DNA from: Anaerolineales bacterium
Lineage (GTDB): Bacteria > Chloroflexota > Anaerolineae > Anaerolineales > E44-bin32
Direction: 5' to 3'
Assembly (NCBI GenBank): GCA_034430895.1
Contig: DAOUDW010000087.1
Span: forward strand, 4,408-68,407
Length of the DNA: 64,000 nucleotides
In this document: one piece after another, positions 51,801 to 54,269 of the stretch
How the letters are laid out: each line of letters opens with the position of its first letter
Position numbering within the stretch: the stretch's first letter is position 1
Made by a program: the position numbers and the translations under genes
The notes under the pieces: model-generated
What the model saw: the letters and a program-made list of their open reading frames with translations, nothing else
What the model was told of the DNA's origin: nothing
The model's database searches: none

Positions 51801-54269
51801 GGATGCAGCGAAGCAAGCATCACCGTCACGCTGCCCATAACCATTACTGTACTGGACACCGACGAACAGCCCGTCGAAGGGTTGCCCGTGTACGCCTTCG
51901 ACGAAACCACCTACACCGGTTACCACGCCACAACGGACGCCTCCGGGCAGGTTAGCTTGACCCTGCCGCCGGGCGATTACCGCTTCCGCACGGATAAAGA
52001 CGGCACACACTTCTGGTCAGGCGCAAGCAACCACTGCACGCTGCCTGGTTGCACAGAAGCCGGCATCACCGTCACGCTGCCCATAACCGTTACTGTGCTG
52101 GACACTAACGGACAACCCGCCGAAGGGCTGCCCGTCTACGCCTTCAATGAAACGACCTACACCGGATATCACGCTACGACGGATGCTGCTGGACAGGTGA
52201 GTCTCACGTTACCGGAAGGTGACTACCGCTTCCGCGCCGACAAAAACGGTACGCAGTTCTGGTCCGGCGAGAGTAACCACTGCTCACTGCCGGACTGCAC
52301 GGAAGCTGGCATCACCGTCACCATCCCGGTCACCGTAAACGTACAGAGTCAGACCGGCGATCCCTACCCTGACCTGCCGGTCTACGCCTTCAGCGCCGAC
52401 AGCTACACCGGATTCCACGGCACAACGGACGAGAACGGCCAGGTAAGTCTGACACTGCCGCAGGGCGACTACCGCTTCCGCGCCGACTATACCCTTTCGG
52501 GCACAGGCGACGGCGTGCATTTCTGGTCCGGCGAGTCGGATCACTGCACAGTACCCGGTTGCCTCGAAGTTACAGTCGAACTGCCCGGCGGCGGTGGGAG
52601 TGCGCCGCAGTCCGTAACCATCGACTACACCTACGACCCGCTCTACCGCCTCACCGCCGCGGATTACGATTCGGGCGAGTACTTCCACTACAGCTACGAC
52701 GCCGTGGGCAACCGTCTCACCCAGGAGACGCAGGCGGGCACGAACAGTTACACCTACGACAACGCCAACCGTCTCATAGAAGTCGACGGCGTGAGTTACA
52801 CCTGGACCGCCAACGGGAATCTACTCACCGACGGCGAGAGCACGTATACCTACAACCACGCCAACCGCCTGACCGGCGTAACCCAGGGCGAGGACTCCTA
52901 CAGCTACGTCTACAACGGACTGGGTGACCGCCTGACGCAGACCGTCAACGGCGAGGCGATGAACTACACGCTTGATCTGGTCACTGGCTTGACCCAGGTG
53001 CTCGACGACGGCACGAACGCTTATCTCTACGGCCTGGATCGGGTGGGCGAGCAGCAGCCCGCCGGCTGGGCCTACCACCTGCCCGATGCCCTGGGCAGCG
53101 TGCGCCAGCTAACGGATGCAGATCCTGAAGTGACCCTGGCACGCGCCTACGAACCTTTCGGCAGCGTGATGGCCAGCAGCGGCTCGGGCGAGACGAATTA
53201 CAGCTTCACCGGCGAGTGGGCCGATGGGACGGGGTTGATACATCTGCGGGCGAGGTATTATATACCGTGGCAGAGTCGATTTATGAGTAAAGACACATGG
53301 CAAGGAGAGTCTTCTCAACCCATATCATTCCATCGATGGATGTATGCAAATGATGCGCCGATTACATCCTTTGATCCTACAGGTCATTACACGCTTCCTA
53401 GCAATCTAAAGAGAAATCCTTGTGGATTTCCATTTGATTGGCATGAATGTATCCTTTATAAGTTTTATAAGACAAGAGCTTCAGTAACAGAAGAACCTCC
53501 ACTTATTTGGAATCCGTCTGTTACGGTTTATAAATCACCTTCGATTGGACACATACAATTCAAAATACTGTCACCTTTGATACCTACACTGTATTCTGGG
53601 GAAAATATTGAATTACCTGGCGAGCCATTGGGATTTAATCTATGTGGTCAAATCAGCTTAGAAATGATCTTTGAGTCCACTATAGGTAAGAGAAGTGGTT
53701 TCGGTATTTATTATATGTATGAGCTTTTTAACGAGACACTCAATGCGACTTTCCCGTATCAAATAGCTACAGCAGCTGTACATGCATTTGGAGACAATTT
53801 CAGTGTGTCCACACACGTCTATGATAGGAACCGACTTTGGACTCTTCCAGATGATCCCATAGAAGGTAAATTCACTGCTGATTCTATAGAAAAGCCCAGC
53901 GGATGGGCAAGTCTCGGAGAATATGGACTATTTTCTCATCTGCGAGCTAAGTTATCAGATGGACGATACTTAATACCATTAGTTTCGATCAAGGCAAGTA
54001 GTTACTATGGCGATACAGGTGAGCTTCTTCCCAAGACCGGAATGGGAAATACTTCGGGACATTGGGTCGTCCTGTCCGGTATGTCTGAAAATAACAATTG
54101 GCGAGGGAAAAACCCTTCTGATTCATATATTAATTGGGTTAGGATAATGAATCCATTTCACAACCAAGCTGAATATTACTTGTGGCGTGATTTTGAAAAA
54201 TCTTGGAGTAGTTCACGAAGCTTAGTGGAAATCTCCCCTCACACCACAGCAAACATGTGGGGTTATTAA
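39837..54269 (+). CDS. giant Rhs/YD-repeat polymorphic-toxin-like protein (about 4,810 aa)
   Basis: Single uninterrupted frame (the track ORF starts at 39792; the ATG at 39837 follows GGAGAGG). Domains in order: signal-like N-terminus; laminin-B-like domain; 3 Gly-rich modules; Big_1-like and DUF11-like Ig domains; dozens of YD repeats (YTYDALGRRLAITDAEDNTTSY...); Rhs core end RARYYIPWQSRFMSKDTW...APITSFDPTGH; and a 293-aa tip. Confidence 0.9.
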   Translation: MSMSRTTLTSVIRDFSRPRFRLYRLRSAIIKILNAGVAASMLTSMSGVALASAASDADTNVEIPLPAPYKSIEALVEPNIVQSTFDSDDEGWTIVGDGDGPTYNATGGNPGGYISSTDQASSEYWYWQAPAKFLDDQSAAYGRTLSFDLVQSVTDDQDDQDDVVLVGDGITLVFDTSYNPGDTWTHYVVTLHESAGWLNSSTGLAPSSIEFTQVLTNLESLLIRGEYRVGDDTGGLDNAAFSVLCPETGNLIVPIGTSCWLEAGEYTFDSITVEAGGLIYLEGDPVTGEGVILNSTTIVVESGGEMTATALGYPIGQGPGAGSGTDKTGGGGHGGYGGNGTEYNAIGGVGYGSLFEPITLGSGAGDRPEGGTGGGAIHLIVNGTLQLDGTVLADGGAGTQYERGGGAGGSIWIEAASLAGSGLIRTNGGNAGYMGGGGAGGRIAIDASSNSFTGSVNAHGGTGNQAGGAGTIYWTVDDHLVVDNGGNSGKQTPLEEDDYDFESITLNGNAILQVEGANSSITLDNTTIQGDGTGRLTPFGTAYVPVDLIINDYTLNLEGQMPGVQTVTVESGGGLMFRPGSQFYSGSYAFQSIEVRDGGKLYAYPYIAGGGVYSNDYGLTLEVGNLTVDAGGEVTATGLGYPIGQGPGVGSGSDDTGGGGHGGLGGNGIEANATGGGAYGSLFEPITLGSGAGNVGQGGSGGGAIHLLVSGTLQLDGTISVDGGSSTQYERGGGAGGSIWVEAASFTGTGLIRANGGNGGTQGGGGGGGRIAIDASSNSFTGSVNASGGTGNERGGFGTIYWTVDDHLVIDNGGVNARPSVIVEGDYDLNLITLSGNAILRVEGASSSITLDNTTVQGDGTGRLIPFGTVLTPAAFTVDNFALDLEGKFDGVTNLTVGSNGELILRTYTALYSGIHTFSSVDVVSAGRLIFVPYNNGDSDYTNDSPFELHVDTLNIDAAGIITAEGSGYPRNQGPGTPTSSGGGGGGHGGAGGNGLHGSGGTSYGSLYQPVLFGSGGADDANGAASGGGAIILVVENAITVNGILSVDGASNSAVSSSGSGGGGSGGSIWVTADTLNGSGVVSADGGNSTNGGGGAGGRIAVYAETVDPNLSLSVMGGAGGDPGDLGTTYLGNLDPTLSSITIDPDTVPTLVSSYGEIRVTLRNEFGLPIPGKPVSVALISGDEAYINDQLVGLNDFIDIGLTDIDGNATGTIRAETLGLRTVRARSEQELILAEATVEFIPGPFDPGTSTIDATPQQVPADGSTPANLIVTTRDAFGNPVPGAEVTLTTPSGTLTQPATPTDANGQTSGTLTHDAIEAITVSALVDSVMFDDEATVDFHGSDLEADITAPDEAIADGTVTYSITVKNMDLLTANGVTATLELPAEVTYLYDSAPTDPTQNGNELTWELDALPHNNAVSFSVTTDVNPTVPAGSTLTGVINVSTTSPEANTSNNVSSDSTTIVDAFDFTVALIPTSATLNMGGAAQYTIRIRNVGFVGDSYAISVDGLDANWIELGDNEIGISPGASRDVTLTISPDGCQAEEILPFSVSVQSNGGTIKTAQGEVSLVQVPNITLDKPKDNSTSGSRSVLFSWRTNPTTTGTLTVYPQGQPAEAQTFNSSQGATHNIQVEDLERYVTYEWYVQADSTCGTQTSATRTFTVGSGIVFVSRNPSFELARDYDQRFSITVRNDDSEAHTLLATVQNPYEDLILNFVGSGSVDETITLSAGQSRTLELVVHAQDATNHEYDLLAEITADDGTSIPLTDNTSIHLTVLFEFDVSVVEDSVDPITGVKTYTVTNNGLPITDLEISAADPTSGEPARVMFLPSISHGKLDTGDSVTFDMIPLFDERDVAGMSALPSGGNLASYLPNSEPGIISANLIVGGAGQEQVQSSNMSCPSGSVHSAPLEDVCLELQNSNWYCTNKPNISMPFYLPFIVEQDLIESVNLQMDFHPRSNVQDHTTSISLNGELQGTLDNMIPNGTFSTRVPPDTLHTSEYGSTVQELELNSVHNNPGHYVSVADFSLGIGLQSTTAYVCAESPEDASENAMDAFHLKPSEIASACASVGIPVESVLSSGDDCCAAYGATQVNVGGEINTRTGGMDYSFVDISIPTSAGTLSFKRWYSTLTLEDYADTLGYGWTHSLDTRLIFPDDPLGREGVVLMKLHASNRYQFTIEDDGTFTPFPGFTGELTASGDPLTFTYATPGQYDYHFDADGKLISRSDPRGNALQYTYNAEDRLIRVEDDNGQRYLELDYDALGRVNSVQDHTDRGVTFNYNAAGDLSSSVDLLGGTWTYFYDPTLPHYLSEVRDPSGTTLERTVFDEQGRAVEQYNGEGELAVRLEYEGFGSTKVYEATGNQSMHVYDSNDAIERQEDPLGGLNRREYDDNFRPTMITDEDGDTTHLTWSEDGTNLTQVIDAEGNPVNLSYDENNNLTSIVDPLDTETSYAYDGLLLTSSTDDEGNTTSYTYTPEGYLQSITDAAGNTTSYTYDSYGQQVSMTDASGNTWLYRYDDLGRLIENEDPNGVIARREYDAAGRMIRSTRNYDPARPQNDENLYNIVTEYVYDAVGNQIEVIDTFGRSTQYVYDDANRLIRMFDSAGNETTNTFNNAGQLVATTDVLDRITTFVYDELGRMVEMHDALGNITTTVYNPDGTVASTSDALGNSTSYTYDDLKRVAATTDALDGTTTTTYDELGNVIATTDALGNTTTYEYNSLGQLTHQTDPEGGNIQYVYDELGNRIETIDPRGNSTFYVYDDQGRLETVTDALGGTTTYTYDALGRRLAITDAEDNTTSYSYDELGRQVSVTDPLGNTTSTEFDALGNVLSRTDANEETTTYVYDVLGRLESQTDPLGGITTYTYDAASNQLTVTDAEGHTTTTVYDELNRPVSVTDPLGNTTTTAHDATGNVLATTDGSGQTITFTYDELGRQETVTDPLGNTTSYAYDAVGNRISLTDTNGVVTRYEYDGLNRLTAVVENYLYGAPADHETNVRTEYSYDANGNRLTILDGRSHSTTFSYDELNRLESEADPLGNTTSYAYDAVGNRVSLTDAEGFTTNYVYDDTGRLTTIDYPAPDDDVSFNYDNNGNRLSMSDGAGTTSWVYDELGRVTSVTDPFGETVSYAYDGVGNRVTLTYPDGETVSYAYDSSDRLTQVADWDSGVTDYSYDSASRLSTATLPNGVVTTYSYDNAGQLLELTHEADDTTLSSFNYTYDSVGNRTQVAEYYLTPGGGTGGPTVSVQIVDERGDPLANLPVYAFDDSTYTGYHETTDENGEAAITLPEGNYRFRVDVDSAQFWSGETNHCAIAGCTEVLFTIPDPVLVSVQDTSGTPIEGLPVYVFDETTYTGKHSTTDENGEAILRLVEGSYRFRADPNGTQFWSAENNHCDVPGCTLANVSVTIPVTVTVMDSLGMPAEGIPVYAFSGGSYSGYHGTSDANGQVSLTLPQGDYRFRADSGGTQFWSGETDHCSVPGCLDAAVEITLPVTVTVEDSDGTPLADLPVYAFDESTYTGFHAATDANGEVSLTLPAGEYRFRADSDGTQFWSGESNHCAVPGCSAASVTVTLPVTVTVLDTDGQPAEGLPVYAFDETTYTGYQATTDASGQVSLTLPLGDYRFRADKNGTQFWSGESNHCTVPGCSAANVTVTLPIVVTVLDTDEQPAEGLPVYAFNETTYTGYHATTDSAGQVSLTLPQGEYRFRADKNGTQFWSGESNHCTVPDCTETSVTVTLPVTVSVLDINEQPLEGVPVYAFDESTYTGYHATTDASGQVSLTLPPGDYRFRADYDGTQYWSGDNNHCSVPGCTAVTLVADETPPVANYYGAKRSLAMILPVRLAQGTLIVVTVLDTDGQPAEGLPVYAFDESIYTGVHGTTDAAGQVSLDLPDGAYRFRADFNPLSGAGGTQFWSGETNHCTVPDCTAVGITVTIPLTVTVLDTDGQPAEGLPVYAFNESAYTGYHATTDVNGQVSLTLPQGAYRFRADKDGTQFWSGESNHCTLPGCSEASITVTLPITITVLDTDEQPVEGLPVYAFDETTYTGYHATTDASGQVSLTLPPGDYRFRTDKDGTHFWSGASNHCTLPGCTEAGITVTLPITVTVLDTNGQPAEGLPVYAFNETTYTGYHATTDAAGQVSLTLPEGDYRFRADKNGTQFWSGESNHCSLPDCTEAGITVTIPVTVNVQSQTGDPYPDLPVYAFSADSYTGFHGTTDENGQVSLTLPQGDYRFRADYTLSGTGDGVHFWSGESDHCTVPGCLEVTVELPGGGGSAPQSVTIDYTYDPLYRLTAADYDSGEYFHYSYDAVGNRLTQETQAGTNSYTYDNANRLIEVDGVSYTWTANGNLLTDGESTYTYNHANRLTGVTQGEDSYSYVYNGLGDRLTQTVNGEAMNYTLDLVTGLTQVLDDGTNAYLYGLDRVGEQQPAGWAYHLPDALGSVRQLTDADPEVTLARAYEPFGSVMASSGSGETNYSFTGEWADGTGLIHLRARYYIPWQSRFMSKDTWQGESSQPISFHRWMYANDAPITSFDPTGHYTLPSNLKRNPCGFPFDWHECILYKFYKTRASVTEEPPLIWNPSVTVYKSPSIGHIQFKILSPLIPTLYSGENIELPGEPLGFNLCGQISLEMIFESTIGKRSGFGIYYMYELFNETLNATFPYQIATAAVHAFGDNFSVSTHVYDRNRLWTLPDDPIEGKFTADSIEKPSGWASLGEYGLFSHLRAKLSDGRYLIPLVSIKASSYYGDTGELLPKTGMGNTSGHWVVLSGMSENNNWRGKNPSDSYINWVRIMNPFHNQAEYYLWRDFEKSWSSSRSLVEISPHTTANMWGY
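40560..43230 (+). repeat. three tandem coding modules of about 985 nt (Gly-rich, beta-helix-like)
   Basis: GYPIGQGPG.GSG.D.TGGGGHGG.GGNG ... YGSLFEPITLGSGAG ... GGGAIHL.V.GTLQLDGT ... GGGAGGSIW.EAAS..G.GLIR.NGGN ... GGRIAIDASSNSFTGSVNA.GGTGN recurs at about 40741, 41730 and 42710. Confidence 0.75.
49516..52590 (+). repeat. 12 tandem coding repeats of about 249 nt (83 aa) embedded in the YD-repeat region
   Basis: Unit: VTVTVLDTDGQPAEGLPVYAFDETTYTGYHATTDASGQVSLTLP.GDYRFRADKNGTQFWSGESNHC.VPGC. I counted 12 YRFR...NHCxxP(G/D)C occurrences. A non-repeat linker of about 30 aa lies at about 51220-51330. Confidence 0.85.

Follow-up and report, generated by a model that had tools for sequence, protein, structure and literature searches.

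The 64,000-nucleotide stretch of DNA considered here, called the window throughout, comes from an Anaerolineales bacterium and carries a giant Rhs/YD-repeat polymorphic toxin gene on its plus strand (39792..54269). The 3' end of this gene is best explained overall, and with good probability, as a cassette made up of a swapped AT-rich core end and a C39-like papain-fold toxin tip. The tip is shown here to represent a previously unmodeled family of predicted divergent C39-like papain-fold cysteine hydrolases, with Gln4589, Cys4618, His4757, and Asn4787 as the putative catalytic set, a reading that draws on residue conservation and a structural model. An original prediction, made from the sequence alone, had proposed that base composition drops sharply at about position 53250, inside the last core segment, that this marks a recombination junction for tip replacement, and that the tip beyond it is a papain-fold or C39-like toxin. 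These proposals held up in the analysis described below.

The toxin tip and its family

The C-terminal toxin domain comprises 293 amino acids (53388..54266, plus strand) and is predicted to be a cysteine peptidase of the papain fold, C39-like and divergent. When 1.84 billion representative proteins were searched exhaustively with phmmer, 143 relatives of the tip (clusters at 50% identity) came up, the best of which is 44% identical (E 7e-43). A word-indexed protein search returned no match with the tip alone and three proteins when the family alignment was used. Scans of genome collections with the alignment and the tip found no relative, and a scan of viral contigs found none either.

Conservation was counted in the 105 domain-length relatives and singles out four positions in the order Gln...Cys...His...Asn/Asp. 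The candidate oxyanion-hole residue Gln4589 (53556..53558, plus strand) is a glutamine in 99 of the 105 homologues and a glutamate in four. Cys4618 (53643..53645, plus strand), the predicted nucleophile, lies within FNLCGQISLEMIF and is invariant, as is His4757 (54060..54062, plus strand), the predicted base, within SGHWVVLSGM. The predicted third member of the triad, Asn4787 (54150..54152, plus strand), is an asparagine in 103 homologues and an aspartate in one. The cysteine codon is where the original prediction had placed it, the spacing of about 140 residues to the histidine comes to 139, and the IMNPFHNQ motif said to follow is found at 54144-54167; the histidine was likewise assigned to the correct motif, with its codon position, given as 54059, off by one nucleotide. 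Beyond the catalytic residues, the family shares the conserved blocks GxNLCGQ, GHWVVxTGxS, and NWVRIxNPFxNxxEYYxW along with an N-terminal PPxIxWxP segment. The window tip keeps nearly all of the family-conserved positions and all four catalytic residues in an intact frame.

The link to known peptidases comes through relatives of the tip. The Pfam family Peptidase_C39_2 is matched by 6 of the 43 aligned members. One of them, P0037, reaches 25.8 bits where the curated cut-off is 24, with a match that takes in the Gln, Cys, and His positions; Gln4589 corresponds to the part of P0037 that is matched by the start of the Peptidase_C39_2 model. The other five match it weakly. A second relative, P0033, gives a weak match over the same Gln–Cys–His span. 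The window tip does not itself pass the profile threshold. Together with the predicted fold, the member matches indicate that the tip family is a divergent C39-like branch of the papain fold, with membership that is indirect and is best described as that of a sister group. The Tox-PL, Tox-PL-2, Tox-PLDMTX, NlpC/P60, CHAP, and transglutaminase-like families gave no match to the tip (E <= 1) and none in the 43 members. In these members, the tip domain is also found behind RHS, WXG100, and SLH modules. Carriage by several delivery modules is more in keeping with a mobile toxin module than with a processing peptidase.

Predicted structure of the tip

An AlphaFold (AF2) model of the tip built with the 43-sequence alignment reached a predicted local distance difference test score (pLDDT) of 82.3 and a predicted template modeling score (pTM) of 0.85; without the alignment, the pLDDT was 31. 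In tip numbering, Cys86 is the first residue of a helix (86-99), His225 lies in a strand (222-226), and Asn255 ends the next strand pair (strand 250-255). The model therefore has what appears to be the papain arrangement, with the cysteine at a helix N terminus and the histidine on a strand.

A structural comparison by Foldseek, the check that had been proposed for the tip, returned 18 matches in the Protein Data Bank (PDB) at E <= 1e-3, all with the papain fold (E 1e-5 to 1e-3, probability 0.98-1.00). They include the top match, a protein named P210 CD lyase (22oc), as well as Lpg2622 from Legionella, the C39 domain of PCAT1 (7n87), staphopains, the phytochelatin-synthase-like protein Alr0975, the Cpe1–Cpi1 complex (9l5u), and a CdiA-CT (8ssk). 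Among viral models, the named proteins that match best are Lysin A of a mycobacteriophage, an endolysin of a Gordonia phage, and AvrRpt2-like proteases. When the PDB was searched by sequence with the tip, the family profile, and P0037, only antibody heavy chains came up, and these were rejected as spurious because they stem from a chance WVxxxxxxLxWIxxINPYN-like string.

A composition break inside the core domain

The position at which the core gives way to the cassette was located with a two-segment maximum-likelihood change point over the range 52000-54269. The maximum is at 53256, the 2-log-unit support interval runs over 53233..53279, and the likelihood-ratio statistic is 113, against a maximum of 12.5 among 200 codon shuffles; the profile is not smooth. 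GC content is 0.635 to the left of the break and 0.402 to the right (statistic 95.5 with the 250-codon flank used for comparison across loci). GC content at third codon positions (GC3), taken per ten codons, goes from 0.8-1.0 before the break to 0.0-0.5 after it. Since GC3 falls as well, the shift is at the level of codons and does not stem from the amino acids encoded. The DNA reads ...CTGCGGGCGAGG up to the break and TATTATATACCGTGG... from it onward.

The break does not coincide with the motif that ends the core. The Rhs-associated core domain (53148..53387, plus strand) matches the NCBIfam model TIGR03696 over its positions 1-76 (E 7.5e-17; residues 184-263 of a fragment starting at 52599) and ends in PITSFDPTGH, which conforms to the PxxxxDPxG[LWFH] pattern of Rhs cores. 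The break lies at the first tyrosine of YYIP within RARYYIPWQSRF (53247-53282), and DPTGH (53373-53387) is 39 codons farther downstream. The AT-rich module thus comprises the last 338 codons of the gene (53256-54269), namely the final 44 core residues (YYIP...DPTGH) followed by the 293-residue toxin domain. This AT-rich core end (53256..53387, plus strand; YYIPWQSRFMSKD...FDPTGH), delimited by the GC3 profile, is also where identity to relatives falls.

Junctions were compared with those of 47 metagenomic loci and four more found through exact-protein matches, with the cross-locus comparison of breaks limited to loci with at least 120 core codons. Where the break is strong, it lies, measured from the start of the RxRYY motif, at +3 codons in the window and, in independent loci, at +7 codons in L008/L009, at +10 codons in L032, and at +15 codons in L016; L003 has a weaker break at -7 codons. 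Sequence identity gives a parallel picture. Over the last 150 core residues, the main protein is 50-79% identical to its relatives in 14 of 15 loci, the outlier being L031 (29%, with 99 aligned positions only). In the same 15 loci, the stretch from RxRYY to DPxG is 27-50% identical and the tip 28-43%; L008, for example, goes from 79% in the core to 48% and then 34%.

Because identity falls at RxRYY, the 44-residue core end covaries with the tip and not with the core. The coincidence of the break and the identity drop just after RxRYY suggests that tips are exchanged as a unit of core end plus tip, with or without downstream genes, and that the join lies in the conserved stretch that codes for RxRYYxP and not at DPxG. 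The sharp break, its recurrence 3-15 codons after the start of RxRYY, and the drop in identity bear out the junction for tip replacement that had been proposed.

Some relatives (L002, which encodes P0001, and L005, L010, L012, L024, L031, L033, L044, and L049) have short ORFs (open reading frames) that start inside the Rhs core, with about 60-260 core residues and then a tip. They resemble orphan cassettes with core fragments of variable length.

An orphan cassette downstream of the toxin gene

A core fragment with an alternative tip is found downstream of the main gene. This orphan cassette is an ORF of 238 amino acids (62561..63277, plus strand) that is truncated by an insertion sequence (IS) and has homology to the Rhs core end only at 62687-62824 (YYIP...DPTGHY). 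The BLASTP alignment between the main and orphan proteins extends from YYIP (orphan residue 43, nucleotide 62687) to DPTGHY, with 41% identity over 46 residues (E 5e-9). TIGR03696 is covered over positions 37-76 in the orphan as opposed to 1-76 in the main gene, and a core-end hidden Markov model (HMM) built from relatives matches the orphan only at positions 83-137 of 138. The 82 HMM positions before this boundary are well conserved in the relatives and would have been detected had they been there. All three comparisons agree with the claim that the composition drop coincides with the start of orphan homology.

Other Rhs ends, one of them from an Anaerolineaceae metagenome-assembled genome, share 63-80% identity with the orphan core end. 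With a core end far closer to these than to the main gene, the orphan is neither a tip that this gene lost recently nor a ready donor for it. For the orphan tip proper (62825-63240, about 140 residues after DPTGHY), neither Pfam nor a set of 5.8 billion clustered proteins yielded a match. At its 3' end, the tip is cut by an IS481/IS3-type element, and the identical junction is present in the JGI metagenomes 3300031654 and 3300031337. The transposase element that truncates the orphan (63231..64000, minus strand) was assigned with NCBIfam, coincides with a GC change point at 63231, and finds further support in a 324-residue gene with helix-turn-helix (HTH) and rve domains in L052.

A PD40 lipoprotein partner and its absence next to the window toxin

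In 37 of 43 related loci with a callable downstream plus-strand ORF, the toxin gene is directly followed by a PD40-family gene (L001, L003, L004/L018, L008, L011, L014-L017, L019-L021, L023-L028, L030-L032, L034-L036, L039, L041-L044, and L046-L051). The partner is on the same strand and starts within a few bases of the toxin stop codon. The encoded proteins are PD40 beta-propellers (Pfam PD40, E down to 1.5e-35) with an N-terminal signal peptide, a lipobox cysteine, and then a linker rich in proline, threonine, and serine. The partners number 32 once redundancy is removed; 27 of them satisfy a strict definition of the lipobox, and in the remaining 5 a cysteine comes after a recognizable signal peptide. 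From its position and linkage, the PD40 lipoprotein is expected to be the immunity protein, and it is treated here as a candidate for that role. Its lipoprotein nature implies that neutralization takes place outside the cytoplasmic membrane. Beta-propeller immunity proteins were not found in the survey of Zhang et al. (2012, PMC3482391), where only one lipoprotein immunity family was known, and no later description of a pairing between a C39-like toxin and a PD40 lipoprotein was found in the literature.

In the window, the position that the partner gene takes in most relatives is a gene-free spacer of 1.1 kb (54270..55357) with short dispersed repeats. Neither tblastn nor a partner HMM run on six-frame translations found a partner gene or a remnant of one 3' of the tip. 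Rfam gave no match, either for the window as a whole or for the spacer scanned at permissive settings, and a terminator scan found none. About 25 nucleotides past the stop codon is a hairpin with a T-run behind it, but its folding is no more stable than that of shuffled sequence (z = -0.6).

The sole matches to the partner HMM in the window are two tandem paralogous genes for PD40-like lipoproteins (9660-10925 and 10967-12220, minus strand; E 9e-24 and 2e-22). What they share with the partners is generic PD40 repeats, with pairwise BLASTP E values of at least 0.003. These genes could be distal paralogues of the candidate immunity gene or could encode unrelated TolB-like proteins. They were considered as cognate immunity genes and are not claimed as such, given that generic PD40 repeats explain the match.

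Proposed mechanism and alternative explanations

The combined observations are consistent with a mechanism in which the incoming cassette would bring its own aspartyl-autoprotease dyad along with the cleavage site. The AT-rich core end contains two aspartates that could make up this dyad, D4501 (53292-53294, in RFMSKD) and D4528 (53373-53375, in FDPTGH). In RhsA, the aspartates D1324 and D1346 and the PxxxxDPxG motif drive C-terminal autoproteolysis (PMC8765631), and the assignment in the window follows by likeness to that motif. The giant Rhs protein would leave the cell by Sec, and the tip would be enclosed by the Rhs shell and cut off after DPTGH. The freed tip could then cleave, by thiol peptidase activity, a target located outside the cytoplasmic membrane, either the stem peptides of peptidoglycan or an envelope protein. 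The lipobox-bearing PD40 partner in 37 of 43 loci, the matches to phage lysins, and the SLH-fused relatives together point to the envelope. A target there, whether peptidoglycan stem peptides or an exported protein, is a plausible proposal that falls somewhat short of an even chance.

In the window genome, the partner gene would have gone from beside the toxin. A tentative extension of the proposal, for which the chance is perhaps one in three, is that the family represents an undescribed pair of a C39-like thiol peptidase that acts outside the membrane and a lipid-anchored PD40 immunity protein. The pair would here be split by an AT-rich defense islet, with the producer relying on the paralogues at 9660-12220 or being insensitive.

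Several points weigh against the explanation as a swapped core end with a C39-like toxin tip. The tip has no Pfam (E <= 1), NCBIfam, or PDB sequence match. The papain arrangement in the model is read from the placement of secondary-structure elements, and the structural matches remain remote, with a TM-score normalized to the target of at most 0.66 and an identity of 10-15%. For the tip family as a whole, the enzymatic role is predicted from sequence and model. Regarding the junction, several related loci have a weak break or a break elsewhere, with weak signals that scatter, and the AT-rich block spans 10 kb, so that the break is equally describable as the border of an island. The main gene end and the orphan show no DNA similarity (blastn, word size 7) in the comparison that had been proposed as a check, and the pair therefore gives no direct evidence of exchange in this genome. 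Finally, an immunity gene is missing from the expected position, where 54270-55357 has no plus-strand ORF of more than 45 amino acids. The lack of an adjacent immunity gene is unexpected for an active self-targeting toxin.

The same fold could serve other chemistry, with the Cys–His–Asn triad belonging to a transglutaminase, a deamidase, an acyl- or gamma-glutamyl-transferase, or a lyase. Such toxin domains may work as transglutaminases (Zhang et al., PMC3482391), and the papain-fold matches do include Alr0975, crystallized as a glutathione acyl-enzyme intermediate, and a top match named as a CD lyase. However, Pfam finds no transglutaminase, Tox-PLDMTX, or CNF-type match in the tip, Peptidase_C39_2 is the only enzyme family matched by more than one of the 43 members, and the third triad residue is an asparagine, as in papain and C39-like peptidases, all of which make this alternative unlikely. 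It is also rather improbable, at perhaps one chance in five, that the toxin works in the target cytoplasm on an essential protein, as Cpe1 does, with the PD40 lipoprotein as an accessory or receptor-related factor. Characterized Rhs toxins mostly enter cells, and both Cpe1–Cpi1 and the CdiA-CT are among the structural matches; in the other direction, the signal peptide and lipobox of a partner encoded directly 3' of the toxin argue for neutralization outside the membrane, the viral structural matches are cell-wall lysins, and the family is also fused to a domain that binds the cell wall (SLH).

For the break itself, the competing account is that a 10-kb AT-rich island was inserted in one event with its left border at 53256, or that the break reflects GC enrichment of the repetitive Rhs body, with the orphan match arising there only because RxRYYxP is where detectable conservation begins. 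The AT-rich block is indeed uninterrupted from 53256 to the IS at 63231, taking in the patatin-like gene and type II restriction-modification genes, the rhs body is richer in GC than the backbone, and the main gene and the orphan share no DNA identity. Yet the break position recurs in unrelated metagenomic loci with other downstream genes, identity to relatives drops at the same codon, and the 82 conserved HMM positions before the orphan boundary would have been seen. Moreover, an island that is bordered inside rhs and carries a core end and a tip is what the displacement model of Jackson et al. (PMC2935791) predicts. This account is accordingly given little weight. Even less credence is given to the tip being a decaying or disarmed module that lost its immunity gene and is no longer expressed or active. 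The missing adjacent partner and a neighborhood broken up by the defense islet, dispersed repeats, and the IS speak for such decay; against it, the 4,825-codon frame is intact and the catalytic and conserved positions are kept, so decay is not evident. The swapped core end with a C39-like toxin tip thus stays the preferred explanation.

Relationship to known systems

The window gene is known in kind: it is an Rhs toxin with an exchangeable tip (Jackson et al. 2009) that carries a C39-like papain-fold toxin (Zhang et al. 2012). It is new in detail, with a family missed by profile libraries, a near-obligate PD40 partner, evidence for exchange from RxRYY, and a locus without an adjacent partner. 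Zhang et al. (2012, PMC3482391) list the Tox-PLC39 domain for RHS proteins from Chloroflexi, Bacteroidetes, and Firmicutes. Like the window tip, Tox-PLC39/Peptidase_C39_2 (PF13529) is a papain-fold domain with a C-H-D/N triad at the extreme C terminus of RHS toxins. The window tip and most of its relatives fall below detection by PF13529. They also differ from it in an insertion between the Gln and Cys positions of about 29 residues in the window tip, compared with 8 in P0037, and in having the N-terminal PPxIxWxP and C-terminal NWVRIxNPFxNxxEYYxW blocks. While the toxin table of Zhang et al. lists no immunity protein for Tox-PLC39, and the immunity table ties Imm-SuFu to Tox-PL-C39-like toxins (PMC3482391), the relatives of the window tip have a PD40 lipoprotein partner.

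The C39 domain of PCAT1 (7n87) matches the tip (E 1.7e-4, TM-score 0.64 to the target) and has the same catalytic order. Classical C39 peptidases occur with an ABC (ATP-binding cassette) transporter and a double-glycine leader. Neither is the context of the tip, which is in a protein with no ABC domain (Pfam), is about twice the size of the PCAT1 C39 domain, and is fused as cargo to an Rhs shell. The Cpe1–Cpi1 pair (9l5u; PMC12136450) represents a case where a papain-fold protease serves as an interbacterial toxin on type VI secretion system (T6SS) and contact-dependent inhibition (CDI) carriers. The tip matches Cpe1 in structure (E 5.5e-4, TM-score 0.66 to the target), and no sequence similarity was detected. 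Cpe1 has about 140 amino acids, and its targets, GyrB and ParE, are in the cytoplasm, as is its immunity protein, in contrast to the lipoprotein partner of the window family.

Enterobacterial Rhs elements likewise have a GC-rich core, a distinct tip, and downstream cassettes made of a core fragment and a tip (Jackson et al. 2009, PMC2935791). The dissociated core fragments in that work are identical to the resident core, whereas the 46-residue core end of the window orphan is only 41% identical and has no DNA similarity. In addition, 7.6 kb of genes lie between the main gene and the orphan in the window, and the break is found 39 codons before DPxG.

Tse1–Tsi1 is a T6SS pair of a peptidoglycan amidase, Tse1, which is of the NlpC/P60 type, and a periplasmic immunity protein with a beta-propeller fold. 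It serves as a working analogy, in that a papain-superfamily hydrolase is neutralized outside the cytoplasm by a beta-propeller. Unlike Tse1, the tip family has no NlpC/P60 or CHAP match, and Tse1 is not among the top 50 Foldseek matches.

The window locus offers a well-supported example from beyond the Proteobacteria of Rhs tips that move as cassettes. That these cassettes take the last ~44 core residues, and with them the putative autoprotease dyad and cleavage site, gives a finer boundary for exchange. The family and its partner offer a candidate, open to testing, for a protease toxin directed at the cell envelope and for a new type of immunity protein. There is also a gain for annotation, as the blocks GxNLCGQ, GHWVVxTGxS, and NWVRIxNPFxNxxEYYxW can be used as a profile for a family that Pfam and NCBIfam now miss.

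Architecture of the giant Rhs protein

The 4,825-residue protein is encoded in a single ORF, with the assignment resting on the ORF list, Pfam, TIGR03696, and TIGR01643; the protein itself has no entry in the contig index. Its order is a signal-peptide-like N terminus, Laminin_B, Ig-like domains (Big_1, Invasin_D3, and DUF11 by Pfam), the plug-type domain DUF6531 (Pfam), the RHS region, the core end, and the tip. The YD-repeat shell of an Rhs polymorphic toxin is evident from the RHS repeats of PF05593, which form 25 stretches (E 5e-157, Pfam, whole protein), and from matches to TIGR01643 (NCBIfam). By reading of the sequence, the N terminus looks like a signal peptide (...ASMLTSMSGVALASAAS), and export of the protein via Sec seems likely on that basis.

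Three long glycine-rich units with a beta-helix-like look follow Laminin_B (~40700-43500, residues ~300-1230; pattern GYPIGQGPG...GGGGHGG...GGGAGGSIW...). Farther along, the Rhs repeat region is interrupted by 11 CarboxypepD_reg-like repeats of about 85 amino acids each (~50260-52800, residues ~3490-4335), with the pattern PVYAF..TYTGYHATTD..G.VSLTLP.G.YRFRAD..GTQFWSG..NHC. The relative P0050 (L004) has faint matches to the same CarboxypepD_reg domain.

The AT-rich block and its genes

The tip forms the left edge of a contiguous AT-rich block (53256..63231) with 40-41% GC, compared with 51% upstream and 58% in the rhs body. The block, of about 10 kb, is closed by a second change point in GC, which lies beside the IS at 63231. 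The rhs body, at 58-64% GC, is richer than the 51% backbone.

The genes at 55358-61925 in the block are a defense-type set. They encode a patatin-like phospholipase (55358-57364, minus strand), a DUF4145 protein (57648-58007, plus strand), a CcrM-like type II N6-adenine methyltransferase (58137-59312, minus strand), a type II restriction enzyme (59296-60171, minus strand), a protein of 269 amino acids with no assigned family (60162-60971, minus strand), and a HARE-HTH/restriction-endonuclease-like protein (61131-61925, minus strand).

A direct repeat of 168 nucleotides, found by repeat search and alignment, brackets the 7.6-kb patatin and restriction-modification block. Copy A (54518..54685, plus strand) and copy B (62137..62304, plus strand) are 84% identical, with copy B 257 nucleotides upstream of the orphan ORF, and the repeat holds three TAAAGCATAAnnTGGCCG sub-repeats. 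A 17-nucleotide motif, GGTTTTTCCMCCCTACA, is present in eight copies with at most three mismatches, against 0.26 expected. The copies are at 39199 (minus strand), 54669, 54861, 54878, 55198, 57532 (minus strand), 57611, and 62288. All of them lie outside large coding regions, around the rhs gene and inside the AT-rich block, with one about 590 nucleotides before the rhs start.

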